Source of the DNA: a virus
Taxonomy: Duplodnaviria > Caudoviricetes
Reading direction: 5' to 3' (one strand)
Length of the DNA: 30,631 nucleotides
IMG/VR virus record: IMGVR_UViG_3300014879_000004
Span: 1 to 30,631 of that record
The position numbers were made by a program, and so were the translations under genes. This document shows positions 1,672-26,047 of the stretch, piece by piece; positions within the stretch are counted from its first letter, which is position 1; each line of letters begins with the position of its first letter. The notes beneath the pieces are model-generated. The model was given only the letters and a program-made list of their open reading frames with translations. It had not been told where the DNA came from and did not search any database.

Positions 1672-2253
1672 GTGGCAAATCGTCGGCCGCGGACCGCGAC
1701 ACATGACCCTGCGCCCGTGATGGCGCATCGCCAGCGCCTGGTCGCCCAGTTGCGTGTCCAGGGCTATAGTATTCGCGACATCACCCAGGCCCTGGAGGAG
1801 CACAAGGAAGTCAATCCGGCGACGGGCCAACCCTGGGGCCAGGCGACTGTCGCGCGCGACGTCACGCTCCTGCTCGCCGATTGGAAACGCGACGCGGCGC
1901 GGGACACCGCCAGCCATCAGGCGCAGCACCTCGCCGACCTGCGGGCGGTGCGCAAGGCCGCGTGGGGGGCCGGGGAATGGGGCGCCATTTTGCGCGCGCT
2001 CAAACAAGAAAGTGAGCTGCTCGGGCTCAACGCCCCGCAGAAAGTCGCCCCCACGACACCGGCCGGCGACAAGCCCTGGCAGCCGGACACCACAGGGGCC
2101 ACCGATGCCTTCCTCCACGAAGTCGCGACCCTCCTCGCCCAGTTCGGCGGCGCTGGCACGGACGAGGCTCTTCCAGGGTCTCCGGCTCAATCGCTATCTG
2201 CCCTACTTCCCGACGCCGAAACAGGCCGCGTTTCTCCTCCTCCCGCATCGTGA
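1672..2253 (+). CDS. terS: Terminase small subunit
   Basis: HTH-like N-terminus (LRVQGYSIRDI...ATVARDV), LLGLNAPQKV motif, position before terL. Confidence 0.8.
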   Translation: MANRRPRTATHDPAPVMAHRQRLVAQLRVQGYSIRDITQALEEHKEVNPATGQPWGQATVARDVTLLLADWKRDAARDTASHQAQHLADLRAVRKAAWGAGEWGAILRALKQESELLGLNAPQKVAPTTPAGDKPWQPDTTGATDAFLHEVATLLAQFGGAGTDEALPGSPAQSLSALLPDAETGRVSPPPAS

Positions 2254-3421
2254 AGCCCTGTTTGGCGGCGCGGCCGGTGGGGGCAAGTCGATTGCCCTGC
2301 TCATGGGTGCCCTGCAGTACGTCGATGTCCCAGGGTACGCGGCGCTCCTGCTGCGGCGGCACTACACGGATCTCGCCCTGCCGGGCGCGCTGATGGACGT
2401 CGCGCACGGGTGGCTCGACACGACGGAGGCGCACTGGAACGGCGCCGACCACACGTGGACCTTCCCCACCCGCGGCCGTCCTGCCACCCTCTCGTTTGGC
2501 TACCTGGCCACCGTGAATGACCAGTATCGGTACCAGAGCGCGCAACTCCAATTCGTCGGCTTCGACGAGCTGAGCCAGTTCCGGGAGTCGCAGTACCGCT
2601 ACCTCTTCTCGCGTCTCAGGCGGCCGCTCGGTCTGCCCGTGCCGTTGCGCATGCGGAGCGCCAGCAACCCCGGCGGGACCGGCCACGGGTGGGTCAAGCA
2701 GCGCTTTCTCACCGAAGGCCTGCCCGAGGGCCGCCCCTTCCTGCCCTCGCGGCTGGCGGACAATCCACACCTCGACCAAACGGCGTACATCGCCACCCTG
2801 GCCTACCTCGATCCGCTGACGCGCCAGCAGCTCCTCGAGGGCAACTGGGACGCCGAGGTGGAAGGCGAGCTGTTTCGCCGGGAGTGGTTTCAGGTGGTCG
2901 AGCATGGTCCGCGCGAGGGCCGTGTGGTACGCTATTGGGACCTGGCGGCGACGGCGCCGCGGCCGGGTGCCACCGACCCCGACTGGACCGTCGGCGGCAA
3001 GGTCCGTGCGCAGCGTGGCCAGTATTGGGTGCTCGATGTGCGGCGTATTCGCACCACCCCGAAGGGCGTGGACGACCTGGTGGCGCAGACGGCGAAGGAG
3101 GACGGTCCTGGCGTCGAGATTCATATCGAACAGGAAGGCGGTGCCAGTGGCAAGCTGGTGATCGACCGTTTTCAGCGCGCCGTGTTACCAGGCTATACGG
3201 TGTATGGGCATCCACCCTCGGGCGACAAGGTCACGCGCGCGCGGCCCGCGTCGAGTGCCGCCGAAGCCGGGAATGTGGTGCTGGTCCGTGGGCCATGGAT
3301 CACACCATTCCTCGATGAGCTTGGGTTGTTTCCCTACGGCGATCACGACGATCAGGTCGATATGCTCTCGGGCGCCGTGGCAGTACTGACCCAGGAGCCG
3401 CGCCGTATCCGCGCCTGGTGA
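2105..3421 (+). CDS. terL: Terminase large subunit
   Basis: PTPKQ motif, Walker A GGAAGGGKS, Walker B FVGFDE, SASNPGG, nuclease YWDLA and HDDQVD; ATG 2105 chosen as the likely start (uncertain). Confidence 0.95.
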   Translation: MPSSTKSRPSSPSSAALARTRLFQGLRLNRYLPYFPTPKQAAFLLLPHREALFGGAAGGGKSIALLMGALQYVDVPGYAALLLRRHYTDLALPGALMDVAHGWLDTTEAHWNGADHTWTFPTRGRPATLSFGYLATVNDQYRYQSAQLQFVGFDELSQFRESQYRYLFSRLRRPLGLPVPLRMRSASNPGGTGHGWVKQRFLTEGLPEGRPFLPSRLADNPHLDQTAYIATLAYLDPLTRQQLLEGNWDAEVEGELFRREWFQVVEHGPREGRVVRYWDLAATAPRPGATDPDWTVGGKVRAQRGQYWVLDVRRIRTTPKGVDDLVAQTAKEDGPGVEIHIEQEGGASGKLVIDRFQRAVLPGYTVYGHPPSGDKVTRARPASSAAEAGNVVLVRGPWITPFLDELGLFPYGDHDDQVDMLSGAVAVLTQEPRRIRAW

Positions 3422-10533: not shown

Positions 10534-10729
10534 CAATCGTCCTCCGTTCCCGAATGTCCAGACAGACATCACGGATCTCCAGCGCCGCATGGACGAGCAG
10601 GCGAAACATTTCCATACCGTGCGGCAAGCCTTCCAGGCCAGGATCGAGACGCTCGAAGCCGAGCTGAAAGCGCTGAAGGCCCTCGTCGAGCGCCAGGCGC
10701 GTCACGAGACAGGAGCCCCACGTGGCTGA
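10526..10729 (+). CDS. Small coiled-coil protein
   Basis: GGAG RBS + ATG 10526; RIETLEAELKALKALVE heptads. Confidence 0.7.
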   Translation: MADNRPPFPNVQTDITDLQRRMDEQAKHFHTVRQAFQARIETLEAELKALKALVERQARHETGAPRG

Positions 10730-11228
10730 ACCCTTCATCACGTACAAGCTGACCGTGCCGCCGATTCCCTTGCTCAACCCCGAGCAGAGCCGGGCCATTC
10801 TCTTTCGTGAGGCCAGCGCCGCCGTGCAGACGATCGTGGAGGATATCGCGAAAGAGGCGCGCAGCCGCACCCCCGTGGGCGTCAGCGGCCTGCTGCGGGC
10901 CTCGATTTACACCGATGTGACGACGGGCACGTCGCTCAGCGCCGCCATCCGGGGGACCGTGTTCACCGGAGCCCAGGTGCCCTACGCGCGGTACGTCGAA
11001 GAAGGCACGGCGCCGCACTGGGCGCCCATCGGGCCGCTGCTCCTGTGGGCGCGGCGGGTGCTGGGCGACGAACGGGCGGCCTACCGCGTGCAGCGGGCGA
11101 TCGCCCGGCGGGGCACACGGGGGCGGCATATGTTTCGCGATGCCATGACCGCCGTGAGACCGCAGATGCAGGGGATACTCCAGCAGGCGATGGCGCGGGC
11201 GGCCAGGATGCTCCAGGGAGGGCGTTAG
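10722..11228 (+). CDS. HK97 gp10-like tail completion protein
   Basis: TPVGVSGLLRASI, YARYVEEGT, IARRGT motifs. Confidence 0.85.
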   Translation: MAEPFITYKLTVPPIPLLNPEQSRAILFREASAAVQTIVEDIAKEARSRTPVGVSGLLRASIYTDVTTGTSLSAAIRGTVFTGAQVPYARYVEEGTAPHWAPIGPLLLWARRVLGDERAAYRVQRAIARRGTRGRHMFRDAMTAVRPQMQGILQQAMARAARMLQGGR

Positions 11229-11464
11229 GGGCTGGTGCGCCGGAGCAGTTCAGCGGTCTGCGCGACGATGGCCTGTGACGTCGCCTGCATGGCGGCGAGG
11301 GCGGTCCGGGTTTCGTCATGGCGCCTGTCGAGACGGACAGAAAGTCGCCACCAGACGAAACAGAGGCCGCTGAGATAGACGAGCGCGGCGCCGACCGTCC
11401 AGGTATAGGTAATTTGCTGGTTCTGGGCAATCGTGTTGAGCGAGGCGAGTAGTTGCGGGTCCAT
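11225..11464 (-). CDS. Small single-TM membrane protein (antisense moron), paralog of 1097..1318
   Basis: AGAGGAG RBS; TM segment then WWRLSVRLDRRHDETRTALAAMQATSQAIVAQTAELLRR. Confidence 0.8.
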   Translation of the reverse strand: MDPQLLASLNTIAQNQQITYTWTVGAALVYLSGLCFVWWRLSVRLDRRHDETRTALAAMQATSQAIVAQTAELLRRTSP

Positions 11465-11491
11465 ACGACATCTCCTCTATGATGTGTGGCG

Positions 11492-11550
11492 GACCAGGCG
11501 TCAGAGTAGAGGCTCCGACCTTGCGAGGGTTAGCTAGACCCTACCCGGCC
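11492..11550 (-). ncRNA. Candidate structured leader RNA (three-way junction, c4/CI-like architecture)
   Basis: GGCCGGGU/GCCUGGUC closing stem; AGGGU-CUAGCUA-ACCCU; GUCGGAG-CCUCUA-CUCUGAC; the G-U pairs form only on the minus strand. Confidence 0.6.
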
Positions 11551-11557
11551 AGGAGCC

Positions 11558-11587
11558 AATGTAGCACGATGCTACAGAGAAAGTATA
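11558..11587 (-). promoter_or_regulatory. Extended -10 TGcTACATT overlapped by palindrome TGTAGCA-CGA-TGCTACA; second -10-like TATACT
   Basis: Perfect 7-bp IR 11560-11576; predicted start about 11551 coincides with the RNA 5' end. Confidence 0.55.
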
Positions 11588-11622
11588 CCTCGTATATTGT
11601 GACCTATGCTAGGAATGTCGCT

Positions 11623-11871
11623 ATGCATCTACGCTGCTTTGTGGGTCTGGCATCCGTGCTCGATATCCTCGCCGAACCGCAGGATCTGCCACGCGTAGGG
11701 GAATCGTGCATCCTGCCCGTGCCGGACGGACCGCAGCGCTTTCGCGTCGAAGGCCTCCTGCGCACGTACAGCTTTGCCCGTGCGCTCGCAGGGATCGATA
11801 GGCTCGATCTCGAGACCGTGCATCTCATGCTGGTGCCGGAAGCAGGTGGAGAGCCGCATGCCGCTCAGTGA
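11623..11871 (+). CDS. Hypothetical protein (82 aa)
   Basis: AGGA RBS + ATG 11623; LPRVGESCIL..FRVEG beta pattern; overlaps next start. Confidence 0.6.
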   Translation: MHLRCFVGLASVLDILAEPQDLPRVGESCILPVPDGPQRFRVEGLLRTYSFARALAGIDRLDLETVHLMLVPEAGGEPHAAQ

Positions 11872-23933: not shown

Positions 23934-25088
23934 ATGGCACCGCTCACCATCCAACGCCCGACCCTGCCCAACCCGCTCACGCTCGCCCGCGGCGGCACCG
24001 GCGCCACCACGGCGGCGGCGGCGCGTTCGGCGCTGGGGCTGGTGCCTGGCACCGACGTGCAGGCGCAGGACGTCGAGTTGCAGGCCCTCGCCGGCCTCAC
24101 CTCTGCCGCCGACCGCCTGCCGTACTTCACGGGCGCCGGCACGGCGGCGCTGGCGACGTTCACGGCGGCCGGGCGCACGCTGGTGGCCGGCGCCGACGCG
24201 GCGGCGCAGCGCACGGCGCTGGGGCTGGGGACGCTGGCGGTGCTCAATACGCCGCTGGCGGTGTCGGTGGGCGGTACCGGGGCGACAGACGCCGCCACCG
24301 CCCGCAGCAACCTGGGGCTGGGGACGCTGGCGACGCAGAACGCGGGCGCGGTGGCGATTACGGGGGGGAATGTCACGGGGCTGAGTGCCATTAGCGTGAC
24401 TGGTACCGCGAATTTTAGTGCGGGGGTCAATGCGCAGAATTACGCCGGGAGCAGCGTCTACGGTTTTGTCTCGTATATTGCGGCAGCAGGCGGGGCGGAG
24501 CGCTGGTCCTTCTATTGTACCAGTGACGCGCCGAGTCATTTTGGCGGGGTAGTGGACACTCCTTCGCAAGTACGTATTGGCAGCGGCACTCCCATTACGT
24601 TCAATAACAAGCAGGTGCTCTGGTATGCGAAGCAGACGCAGGATTGCATAGTGATTATGCCAAACGATAATGATACTGGACTAGGGAGTGCGGTCTTGTT
24701 CCGCAACAGTGGAACTGCGGTGGTCGGCTCGATTACCACCACCGCCTCCGCCACCGCCTACAACACCTCCTCCGATGTCCGTCTCAAATACGCCATGGCG
24801 CCCCTCGCCGGCGCCCTCGACGTCCTCCGTGCGCTGCGTCCCGTCAGCCACCGGTGGCAGGCGGATGGCTCGCCTGGCGTCGGCTTCCTGGCGCACGAGC
24901 TGCAGCAGGTGATTCCTGACGCCGTGACGGGCGAGCCGGATGCCATCAACGACGATGGCTCCATCCGTCCGCAACAAGTCGATCATAGCAAACTCGTGGT
25001 GTGGCTCACGGCTGGTCTGCAAGAGTTGCTCGCGCAGGTCGAAACGCTCAGGACCCGTGTCACTGCGCTGGAAGGAGGCGCACTATGA
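23934..25088 (+). CDS. Tail fibre 1 with C-terminal Peptidase_S74 intramolecular chaperone
   Basis: GGTGAT..AAR.ALGLG repeats; [25 protein letters not shown]. Confidence 0.9.
24312..24344 (+). repeat. 33-bp direct repeat CTGGGGCTGGGGACGCTGGCGACGCAGAACGCG (second copy 25280-25312; 21-bp partial 24219-24239)
   Basis: Identical copies in both fibre genes just before their variable domains. Confidence 0.85.
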
Positions 25089-26047
25089 GCGTTGACCCGT
25101 ACCCCGGCCTCGCCGCCGCGCAACCCTTCGACGCCACCCTGCAGGCCCTCGCGGCCTTAGCCACGAGTGCCGACACGGCGCCGTATTTTACCGGCGTCGA
25201 CGCAGCGGCGCTGATGACGATTACGCCGTTTGCGCGGACGTTACTGGACGACGTCGACCAGGCGACGGCGCGCACGACGCTGGGGCTGGGGACGCTGGCG
25301 ACGCAGAACGCGAACGCGGTGGCGGTGACGGGGGGGAGCGTGACGGGGCTGAGTGCGCTGGAGGTGCCTGAGCGCAGTGGCAGCAATCAATATGGCCTGC
25401 TGCTGCGACTCGTGGCGACTGGAGGAACGCAGCGTTGGAATCTCTTTGCGGATGGCCTGGCGCCGAACTATCTCGCGGGACAGGTGGGGGTCGGCACGAC
25501 GAACCTCCTCGCCCAGCTCACCGTTGGCAATAGCGCCTATATTCAAACGGGTCTCGGCATACGCATCGCGCCCATGGCGAATGTCAGTGCCTATGTCGGC
25601 TATTCGAAAGCGACGAGTAATGCGGGGATTCTCCTGGTGACGCAGGATAATGATACCGGATCGGGCGCGGCCATTCAGTTTTCCAATCTGGCCCAGGCGA
25701 TCGTGGGGACGATTGTGACGACGGCAAGCGCGACCACCTTTAACACGAGTTCTGACGCACGGCTCAAGCACGCGATTGAGACGCTCACGGACGCGCTGGA
25801 GAACGTCCGGGCGTTGCGGCCTGTGACCTTCCGGTGGAATGTCGACGACAGCCCGGATGAAGGCTTCCTCGCCCACGAACTGCAACAGGTCTTGCCGCAT
25901 GCCGTGACCGGCGAGTCCGATGCCGTGAACGACGATGGCACGATCCGCCCGCAACAGGTGGATCATAGCAAACTGGTGGTGTGGCTCGTCGGCGCTGTGC
26001 AAGCCCTGCTGGCACGTGTCGAGGCCTTAGAAGCAGCACCAACATAG
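25085..26047 (+). CDS. Tail fibre 2 with C-terminal Peptidase_S74 chaperone
   Basis: AAGGAGG RBS, ATGA overlap with fibre 1; [25 protein letters not shown]. Confidence 0.9.

Follow-up and report, generated by a model that had tools for sequence, protein, structure and literature searches.

A covarying three-way-junction RNA leader with a loop code matching the Shine–Dalgarno hairpin of the next gene, found on an optional phage cassette

The window analysed here is the whole of a 30,631-base virus record. Its gene content is that of a tailed-phage late region (terminase, portal, capsid, neck1, tape measure and fibres), and the closest isolated phage is distant, with a best terminase match of 49% identity. 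A 390-base antisense insert separates neck1 from an 82-aa plus-strand ORF; it holds promoter-like boxes, an RNA and a 79-aa gene whose stop codon overlaps that of neck1. This locus raises the question of what the RNA is and how it acts on the gene that follows it. A sequence-only reading had described it as a three-way-junction leader, and every element of that description was verified in place on the minus strand. Elsewhere in the window, the terminase ORF (1754-3421) has ~140 aa ahead of the part matching known terminases, its top matches being methanogen phages (48–49%), and two tail-fibre-like genes with similar C-terminal matches stand in succession at 23934-26047.

The whole RNA is ~90 bases long, and the model search found one copy in the window. 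It consists of P1, P2 and P3 arranged round a junction and then P4, a hairpin that was missing from the earlier description. P4 has a weak stem of 4–6 bp whose 3' arm contains the SD core, and its loop (L4) carries a variable hexamer. L4 contains UAGAGG (11479-11474), the complement of the P3 loop (L3) CCUCUA, and the SD AGGAG lies at 11476-11472. The target of L3 had been taken for a free single strand; it is in fact the loop of this fourth hairpin (11485-11468). The features are as follows, in the order of the minus-strand transcript.

11623..11871, plus strand: 82-aa ORF, outside the cassette; directly after neck1 in L193; no family
11590..11622, plus strand: conserved cassette end toward the late genes; in 7/7 distinct cassettes, absent at the empty site L193
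11582..11587, minus strand: distal -10-like hexamer TATACT, putative in function; a like hexamer at equal distance in 7/7 distinct same-site cassettes
11560..11576, no strand assigned: inverted repeat over the proximal -10; a similar repeat of altered sequence in same-site cassettes
11558..11566, minus strand: proximal extended -10, TGc-TACATT; predicted start ~11551, the first base of the fold
11557-11552, minus strand: GGCUCC, upstream of P1
11543..11550, minus strand: P1 5' strand (closing stem); two-sided change in 6/8 pairs, 97% of cells paired
11526..11542, minus strand: P2 hairpin, loop L2 CUAGCUA with the palindrome UAGCUA; two-sided change in 6/6 model pairs
11520..11525, minus strand: junction strand CGCAAG (consensus CGYAAG); absent in L002 and the second L006 copy
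11500..11519, minus strand: P3 hairpin, code loop L3 CCUCUA at 11512-11507; two-sided change in 7/7 pairs
11492..11499, minus strand: P1 3' strand, pairing with the 5' strand 11550-11543
11468..11485, minus strand: P4 hairpin with the ribosome-binding site; two-sided change in 4/4 pairs, 87% paired
11225..11464, minus strand: cargo gene, 79 aa; one moderately hydrophobic segment, then an amphipathic helix; no known family
10722..11228, plus strand: neck1/tail-completion gene, left flank (phrog_5, E 1.4e-15); stop overlaps the cargo stop

The inverted repeat at 11560..11576 is a putative operator or divergent promoter, and the cassette end at 11590..11622 would supply an SD, perhaps also a promoter, to the next plus-strand gene. 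Near the left end of the window, the minus strand at 300-480 is AT-rich and carries -10-like boxes, a small hairpin and an SD ahead of a 91-aa ORF (77-352); its model score is weak (E 1.1).

Homologues of the leader were collected along several routes. The cargo-protein search gave 9 loci, 5 of them distinct besides the window's own sequence, and the fold stood upstream in 5/5. In L005 and L006, the fold precedes a different first gene. Further copies came from pattern scans and from the neck1 search. A model built from 10 homologues with the window left out (R1) detected the window at 47 bits (E 4e-7), and 25 distinct copies were found. A second model (R2) added the weak copy L189 and then gave 5 matches in 150 bacterial genomes, taken from the phylum of G009 (Dehalococcoidia). 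Of the resulting 31 RNA copies, 5 are from bacterial genomes and the other 26 from phage or metagenome contigs. Seven of the 25 copies were first noticed with a loop-complementarity filter, the other 18 and the last 5 without it. BLAST of the leader against phages and plasmids gave no match, and the L134 leader gave four short chance matches. Alignment of the cargo to genome contigs yielded 126 candidates, none confirmed, and a pattern scan of genome contigs yielded 49 matches, the best at no more than 25.2 bits. Pattern hits in two phyla (6/251 and 2/301 genomes) were at the level of the reversed-pattern control, and a looser viral pattern returned 72 matches, among them 63 new loci with no model hit. 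At L256:990-1075, below the model threshold, P1, P2 and the junction strand are kept but neither the code loop of P3 nor the SD hairpin survives, which looks like a decayed copy. The 3' part of an RNase P RNA (L307:1-198) and a tRNA-like end that may mark an integration site (L308:1217-1275) lie upstream of two bacterial copies.

The single-sequence fold was unexceptional, both for 11464-11587 alone (z -1.37, 20/200 shuffles equally good) and for the core alone (z -0.91, 35/200), and the case therefore rests on the homologues. Among 26 aligned copies, 91.1% of 642 cells were standard pairs and 23/25 pairs showed two-sided change, figures biased toward the structure by the relatedness of the copies and by the fitting of the alignment to the model. 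None of 500 shuffles reached the observed stem pairing, a significance that the shuffles overstate because of the same relatedness, and slid controls gave 38–48%. The proposed stems of the three-way junction thus covary in homologues, and on this comparative evidence the RNA family is genuine. Equilibrium folding predicted that P1 is kept in 20/25 leaders, and in 13/25 with 15 coding bases added. The window was among those losing P1; its P1 3' strand can alternatively pair over the start codon once coding sequence is included. The junction elements GGU, CGYAAG and a U-G junction pair are conserved across phages and bacterial elements, the conservation of CGYAAG being partly built in, as many copies came from a pattern containing it. 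By eye, P2 was also considered as a tRNA lacking the D arm or as a T-loop and rejected (no CCA end, no loop consensus), and a tRNA search at the leader found none.

The pairing between L3 and L4 also covaries. A Watson–Crick run of at least 6 bp was present in 23/25 cognate pairs compared with 6.7% of 600 non-cognate pairs, and no permutation among 100000 reached the observed sum. The two exceptions are L134, with one G-U, and L139, with one mismatch. All 18 copies found without the complementarity filter reached 6 bp. Moreover, the 5 later bacterial copies match their own L4 by 6, 6, 6, 7 and 5 bp, three of them with new codes, and 19/20 of their cross-pairs stay below 6 bp; the model that found them does not encode the kiss. 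We grouped the loops into ~15 codes among 25 copies, and in both contigs that carry two copies the codes do not match between copies (3–4 bp). Counted by column, the kiss was paired in 69.8% of cells, a figure kept low by loop registers that shift in the alignment, and the cognate-run count is the better measure. L4 is 6–10 nt long, and this length together with the P4 covariation is what a loop–loop kiss needs.

The sequence-only reading had called L3 an anti-SD loop. The CCUCUA/UAGAGG match is exact, but a general anti-SD loop is not what the other copies show. Among 24 copies (L139 was left out because its run is broken), L3 pairing overlaps the SD in 22, mostly by 1–3 bases (3/5 in the window) and by 4–5 bases in 4/24, as scored with the familiar anti-SD motif. 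The complementarity thus adjoins the SD core more than it covers it. The linker from P1 to P4 is 2–3 nt in 5/25 copies. The path to the target is at least 16 nt in all copies, and its length correlated weakly with that of P3 (rho 0.40, p 0.025, n 25; 0.27, p 0.13, after dropping 7 near-duplicates), with automatic helix-length calls partly wrong for L185, L007 and L008.

The RNA travels with an insert that is not always present. The neck1 search gave 18 loci, of which 14 at 74% identity or above collapse to 9 distinct sites. The cassette is present in 7/9 (the window, L002, L005, L007, L008, L195 and L205) and absent in 2/9 (L193 and L203/L204). The RNA-headed insert is an optional cassette, and its cargo varies between sites. 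A census of 25 first genes counted 8 nucleases (6 over the Pfam HNH cut-off, a truncated HNH and an endonuclease VII), 2 replication-initiator-like proteins, 11 small hydrophobic proteins and 3 without family. The hydrophobic class was defined as below 100 aa with a hydropathy peak of at least 1.6, and the window protein falls under this bar, with a peak of 1.41 against 1.74–2.19 in its homologues. The 79-aa protein counts 20 homologues, itself included, at 59–100% identity; it matched no PHROG, Pfam DUF4381 stayed below cut-off and all Atlas leads were below 0.9. The 4 readable bacterial cargo genes gave no family above cut-off. Among the bacterial copies, L304 follows or lies near an integrase and L307 precedes HTH_17 and DUF3854 genes. 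Because the cargo is so varied, the RNA is a part of the cassette rather than the partner of one protein. The earlier description as the leader of an antisense membrane-protein gene is thus right about its place upstream of the 79-aa gene, but the leader is not tied to that gene. As regards a type I toxin–antitoxin arrangement, no separate antitoxin gene was identified, and the cargo is of no family.

Several observations concern the surroundings of the cassettes. No terminator was seen 3' of the cargo, the only terminator-like match lying inside the cargo gene at chance level; with the stop overlap, this means that transcription of the cassette could continue into the head genes in the antisense direction. 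An orientation away from a virion gene is likewise seen in several homologous cassettes. At L182:1289-1516, the HNH cargo ends after 76 aa, with leader and code intact. L195:983-1075 is a long, near-perfect hairpin matched by many sub-threshold microRNA models, and L036:2409-2917 holds two group I introns over the Rfam cut-off in a capsid-gene region adjoining a leader cassette.

The loop of P2 had been proposed to support dimers through a kissing contact. L2 is a perfect hexamer palindrome in 14/31 copies, with four different sequences. The first 26 copies include 10 perfect palindromes (three sequences), 3 with one central mismatch pair and 1 wobble palindrome; the later bacterial copies are perfect in 4/5 and add the fourth sequence. 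Only the central GC is kept in 12/26, a share inflated by the search patterns. The proposal accordingly fits part of the family: shifts among the four palindromes suggest selection for self-pairing in that subgroup, not universally.

A -10-like hexamer lies 5–12 nt before P1 in 18/25 copies, which puts the probable start of the RNA at the fold; a strict promoter scan of the window gave no full promoter. It had further been suggested that the distal promoter adds GGCUCC to the transcript, which would open P3 and release the gene. In the window, transcripts starting at or before 11557 are indeed predicted to fold GGCUCC onto GGAGCC with a probability of 1.0, and the long transcript loses the junction (P1 probability 0.30). 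The extension weakens P1 in 4/7 same-site copies, and -10 boxes commonly stand in tandem. However, 31/100 shuffled extensions equalled the effect in the window (6, 11 and 12 of 100 in L195, L205 and L028), and L002, L007 and L008 were unaffected. In addition, the GGCUCC pairing lacks compensatory change, and P4 forms in both folds. The switch was thus rejected as a conserved feature, and we regard a two-promoter mechanism as improbable.

Our preferred reading, to which we assign a probability of roughly 55%, is that the leader is a portable translational brake in which L3:L4 pairing locks P4 and lowers cargo translation. The cassette would be a portable expression unit made of a promoter, the three-way-junction RNA, the SD hairpin and interchangeable cargo. 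Judging from promoter spacing, transcription would start at the first base of P1. The weak P4 stem, shown by covariation, would bury the SD core; the ~6-bp kiss of L3 with L4, likewise shown by covariation, would stack on P4 and presumably lock it, leaving the cargo poorly translated. The kiss may be at least partly intermolecular, as for c4, with untranslated RNA trimmed to the stable junction or leaders dimerising via L2. A cell already holding the RNA would then silence genes of the same loop code, and a fresh copy in a naive cell would give a short burst. As the L3 code matches the SD-hairpin loop of the next gene, the leader most likely keeps the protein of that gene scarce, irrespective of what the gene encodes. 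In favour of the brake, the cargo (the 8/25 nucleases, 2 initiators and 11 small hydrophobic proteins plus the window's) is of a kind usually kept low. Whether the kiss acts in cis or in trans is about even. A trans action is supported by the free drift of the code, the different codes per contig, the palindromes and the 2–3 nt linkers; a cis action is supported by the match of every copy to itself, by a path of at least 16 nt throughout and by the weak rise of path with P3 length, which loses significance without near-duplicates.

A contrary point is that L3 mostly covers 1–3 SD bases, an arrangement also found in the activating pseudoknot of ColIb-P9, and the sign of control cannot be given by sequence alone. 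Activation is the main rival, given a target placed immediately 5' of the SD as it is in ColIb-P9. Within one molecule, L3 would reach its target only by pulling P4 open and thereby free the SD core. Translation would then depend on the pairing, and blockers of L3, such as antisense readthrough from the late operon or a second leader, would switch it off. The target reaches up to the 5' edge of the SD, and in most copies ~4 bases of the SD are left out of the pairing; a linker of 2–3 nt (5/25) is, by geometric estimate, short for a cis kiss of intact hairpins. The layout resembles that of ColIb-P9 rep, where loop pairing just 5' of the SD induces translation according to the sections available of PMC4705826, and timP likewise requires a pseudoknot, as stated in an excerpt of PMC11228461. 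However, the complementarity lies mostly within the P4 loop and leaves the 5' arm uninvaded (exceptions are the second L006 copy and L186), the SD overlap reaches 4–5 bases in 4/24 copies, and no conserved leader peptide or trigger is evident in the 90-nt leader. Activation is therefore possible but, in our judgement, rather unlikely. Similarly tentative is a self-counting, address-coded switch, in which a lone leader would open the SD in cis by pairing L3 with its target and accumulated copies, meeting through the palindromic L2, would kiss each other's P4 shut. If true, the 6-base code would make cassettes orthogonal and provide a one-piece burst-then-silence circuit for any cargo, with code-specific silencing of incoming relatives by neither a protein nor a separate antisense gene. 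We find it much harder to believe that the conserved junction and L2 bind a ligand or protein controlling the kiss. The conservation of GGU, CGYAAG and the U-G pair in phages and bacterial elements would suit such sensing, but it is partly due to the search patterns, the cargo shares no common pathway and two copies have no junction strand. Least probable is that the structure acts as DNA or merely marks the cassette end; it does travel with mobile cassettes, yet G-U pairs are kept on one strand and the structure invariably has a promoter-like box on one side and a start codon on the other.

Known systems were compared with the leader. Rfam returned no matching family at the leader in the window or in the 13+12+5 loci, including none for P4 CI RNA or IsrK, and thus gave no hit that would remove novelty. 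Likewise, no description of the motif was found in literature searches whose coverage included PMC2864571 and the accessible text of PMC5737381 and PMC10690425. The RNA family is uncatalogued, and it is probably one of self-targeting control at the ribosome-binding site. A prior unnamed listing is possible, as the accessible part of PMC10690425 includes several unnamed candidates upstream of HNH genes. The motifs of the EGFOA/manA assemblies, as far as the available text of bioRxiv 10.64898/2026.07.01.735769 presents them, are unrelated and were set aside.

The earlier reading had named a c4-like RNA, and the layout bears this out. As in P1/P7 c4, the transcript opens with a three-stem junction, the last hairpin carries a loop that pairs at the RBS of the small gene that follows, and promoters are in tandem. 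The P1 b2 target (record AF234172) sits between CCU and AGG, flanked as P4 is here, and the c4 b' loop partly occludes the RBS according to the portion available of PMC5320573. The differences are considerable. The leader has a single antisense loop and lacks the a' arm, the a1/b1 sites and icd/ant; its closing stem is 8 bp instead of 17 bp, J2/3 is 6 nt, the P2 loop is palindromic instead of a UUCG tetraloop, and there is little or no 5' leader. That it is a diverged true c4/CI member, matured by RNase P and bearing two antisense arms, is very unlikely. The satellite-like setting of bacterial copies (the integrase of L304, the HTH_17 and DUF3854 genes of L307) speaks for membership, as do the junction, the anti-RBS loop and the flanking of the target. 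On the other side, no C4 (RF01695) match was found at any leader, in the window or in the 13+12+5 loci; in 5 records none passed the cut-off and the sole weak match lies away from the leader. The leader model in turn misses P1 c4 at E 10. J3/1 is 0–1 nt, a complement of L2 lies downstream in 2/26 copies, an upstream copy of the target occurs in 3/26 (within 150 nt, one row not evaluable), and promoter spacing leaves almost no 5' leader. No icd/ant-type family was present among the 25 cargo proteins. The likeness therefore stands for the layout and loop–RBS pairing, but not for a C4 match, a second antisense arm or upstream target copies. By analogy, the leader may work like the b'/b2 half of P1 c4 grafted onto a T-even-type SD hairpin.

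Other systems share single traits. The available portion of PMC4825925 describes P4 CI and Gifsy-1 IsrK as short RNAs from an mRNA 5' end that act on the same mRNA; CI represses and IsrK activates, so this precedent cuts both ways. In that account, CI differs by termination via seqA/seqC and IsrK by a terminator and long duplexes, neither of which was seen here. T-even endonuclease genes are repressed by SD hairpins, as reported in the accessible part of PMC2988022. There, as with P4 here, the SD of a nuclease or other accessory gene is sequestered in a hairpin, but the T-even hairpins are single and bypassed by an internal late promoter (PMC2988022), whereas the leader adds a junction with a coded loop–loop contact and has promoter-like boxes seen only upstream of P1. 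In ColIb-P9 rep/Inc, an upstream loop also pairs just 5' of a buried SD, and replication initiators are among the cargo here; there the pairing is activating, extends over ~100 nt and depends on a leader peptide as well as a counter-transcribed antisense RNA, according to the parts available of PMC4705826. By name, int-alpA (RF02996) is an orphan motif of integrase/alpA loci, and some copies here lie near an integrase or HTH_17; at E 10, it matched 0/5 records, and none of 5 bacterial loci.

The leader illustrates how translational control can travel together with a selfish or accessory gene to any site of insertion. Nucleases, replication initiators, small hydrophobic proteins and integrated-element genes all stand behind one 90-nt fold, and at one phage site this fold is found in some genomes and missing from others. 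It would represent a stripped-down c4-like design with a single natural, freely variable 6-base code, and, if it acts in trans, its ~20 natural codes would offer a ready-made collection of orthogonal translational regulators.

The palindromic P2 hairpin was also seen apart from the leader. In L013, L017, L019, L026 and L029 (1501, matched strand), GGGT-CTAGCTA-ACCC tips a different conserved two-hairpin leader, which precedes a gene in another phage group and, in L013, has no Rfam match. The same palindromic hairpin stands in long stems in unrelated contexts, with no model hit, in L011, L014, L016 and L025, in L015 and in L021. This hairpin may be a reusable self-pairing module.
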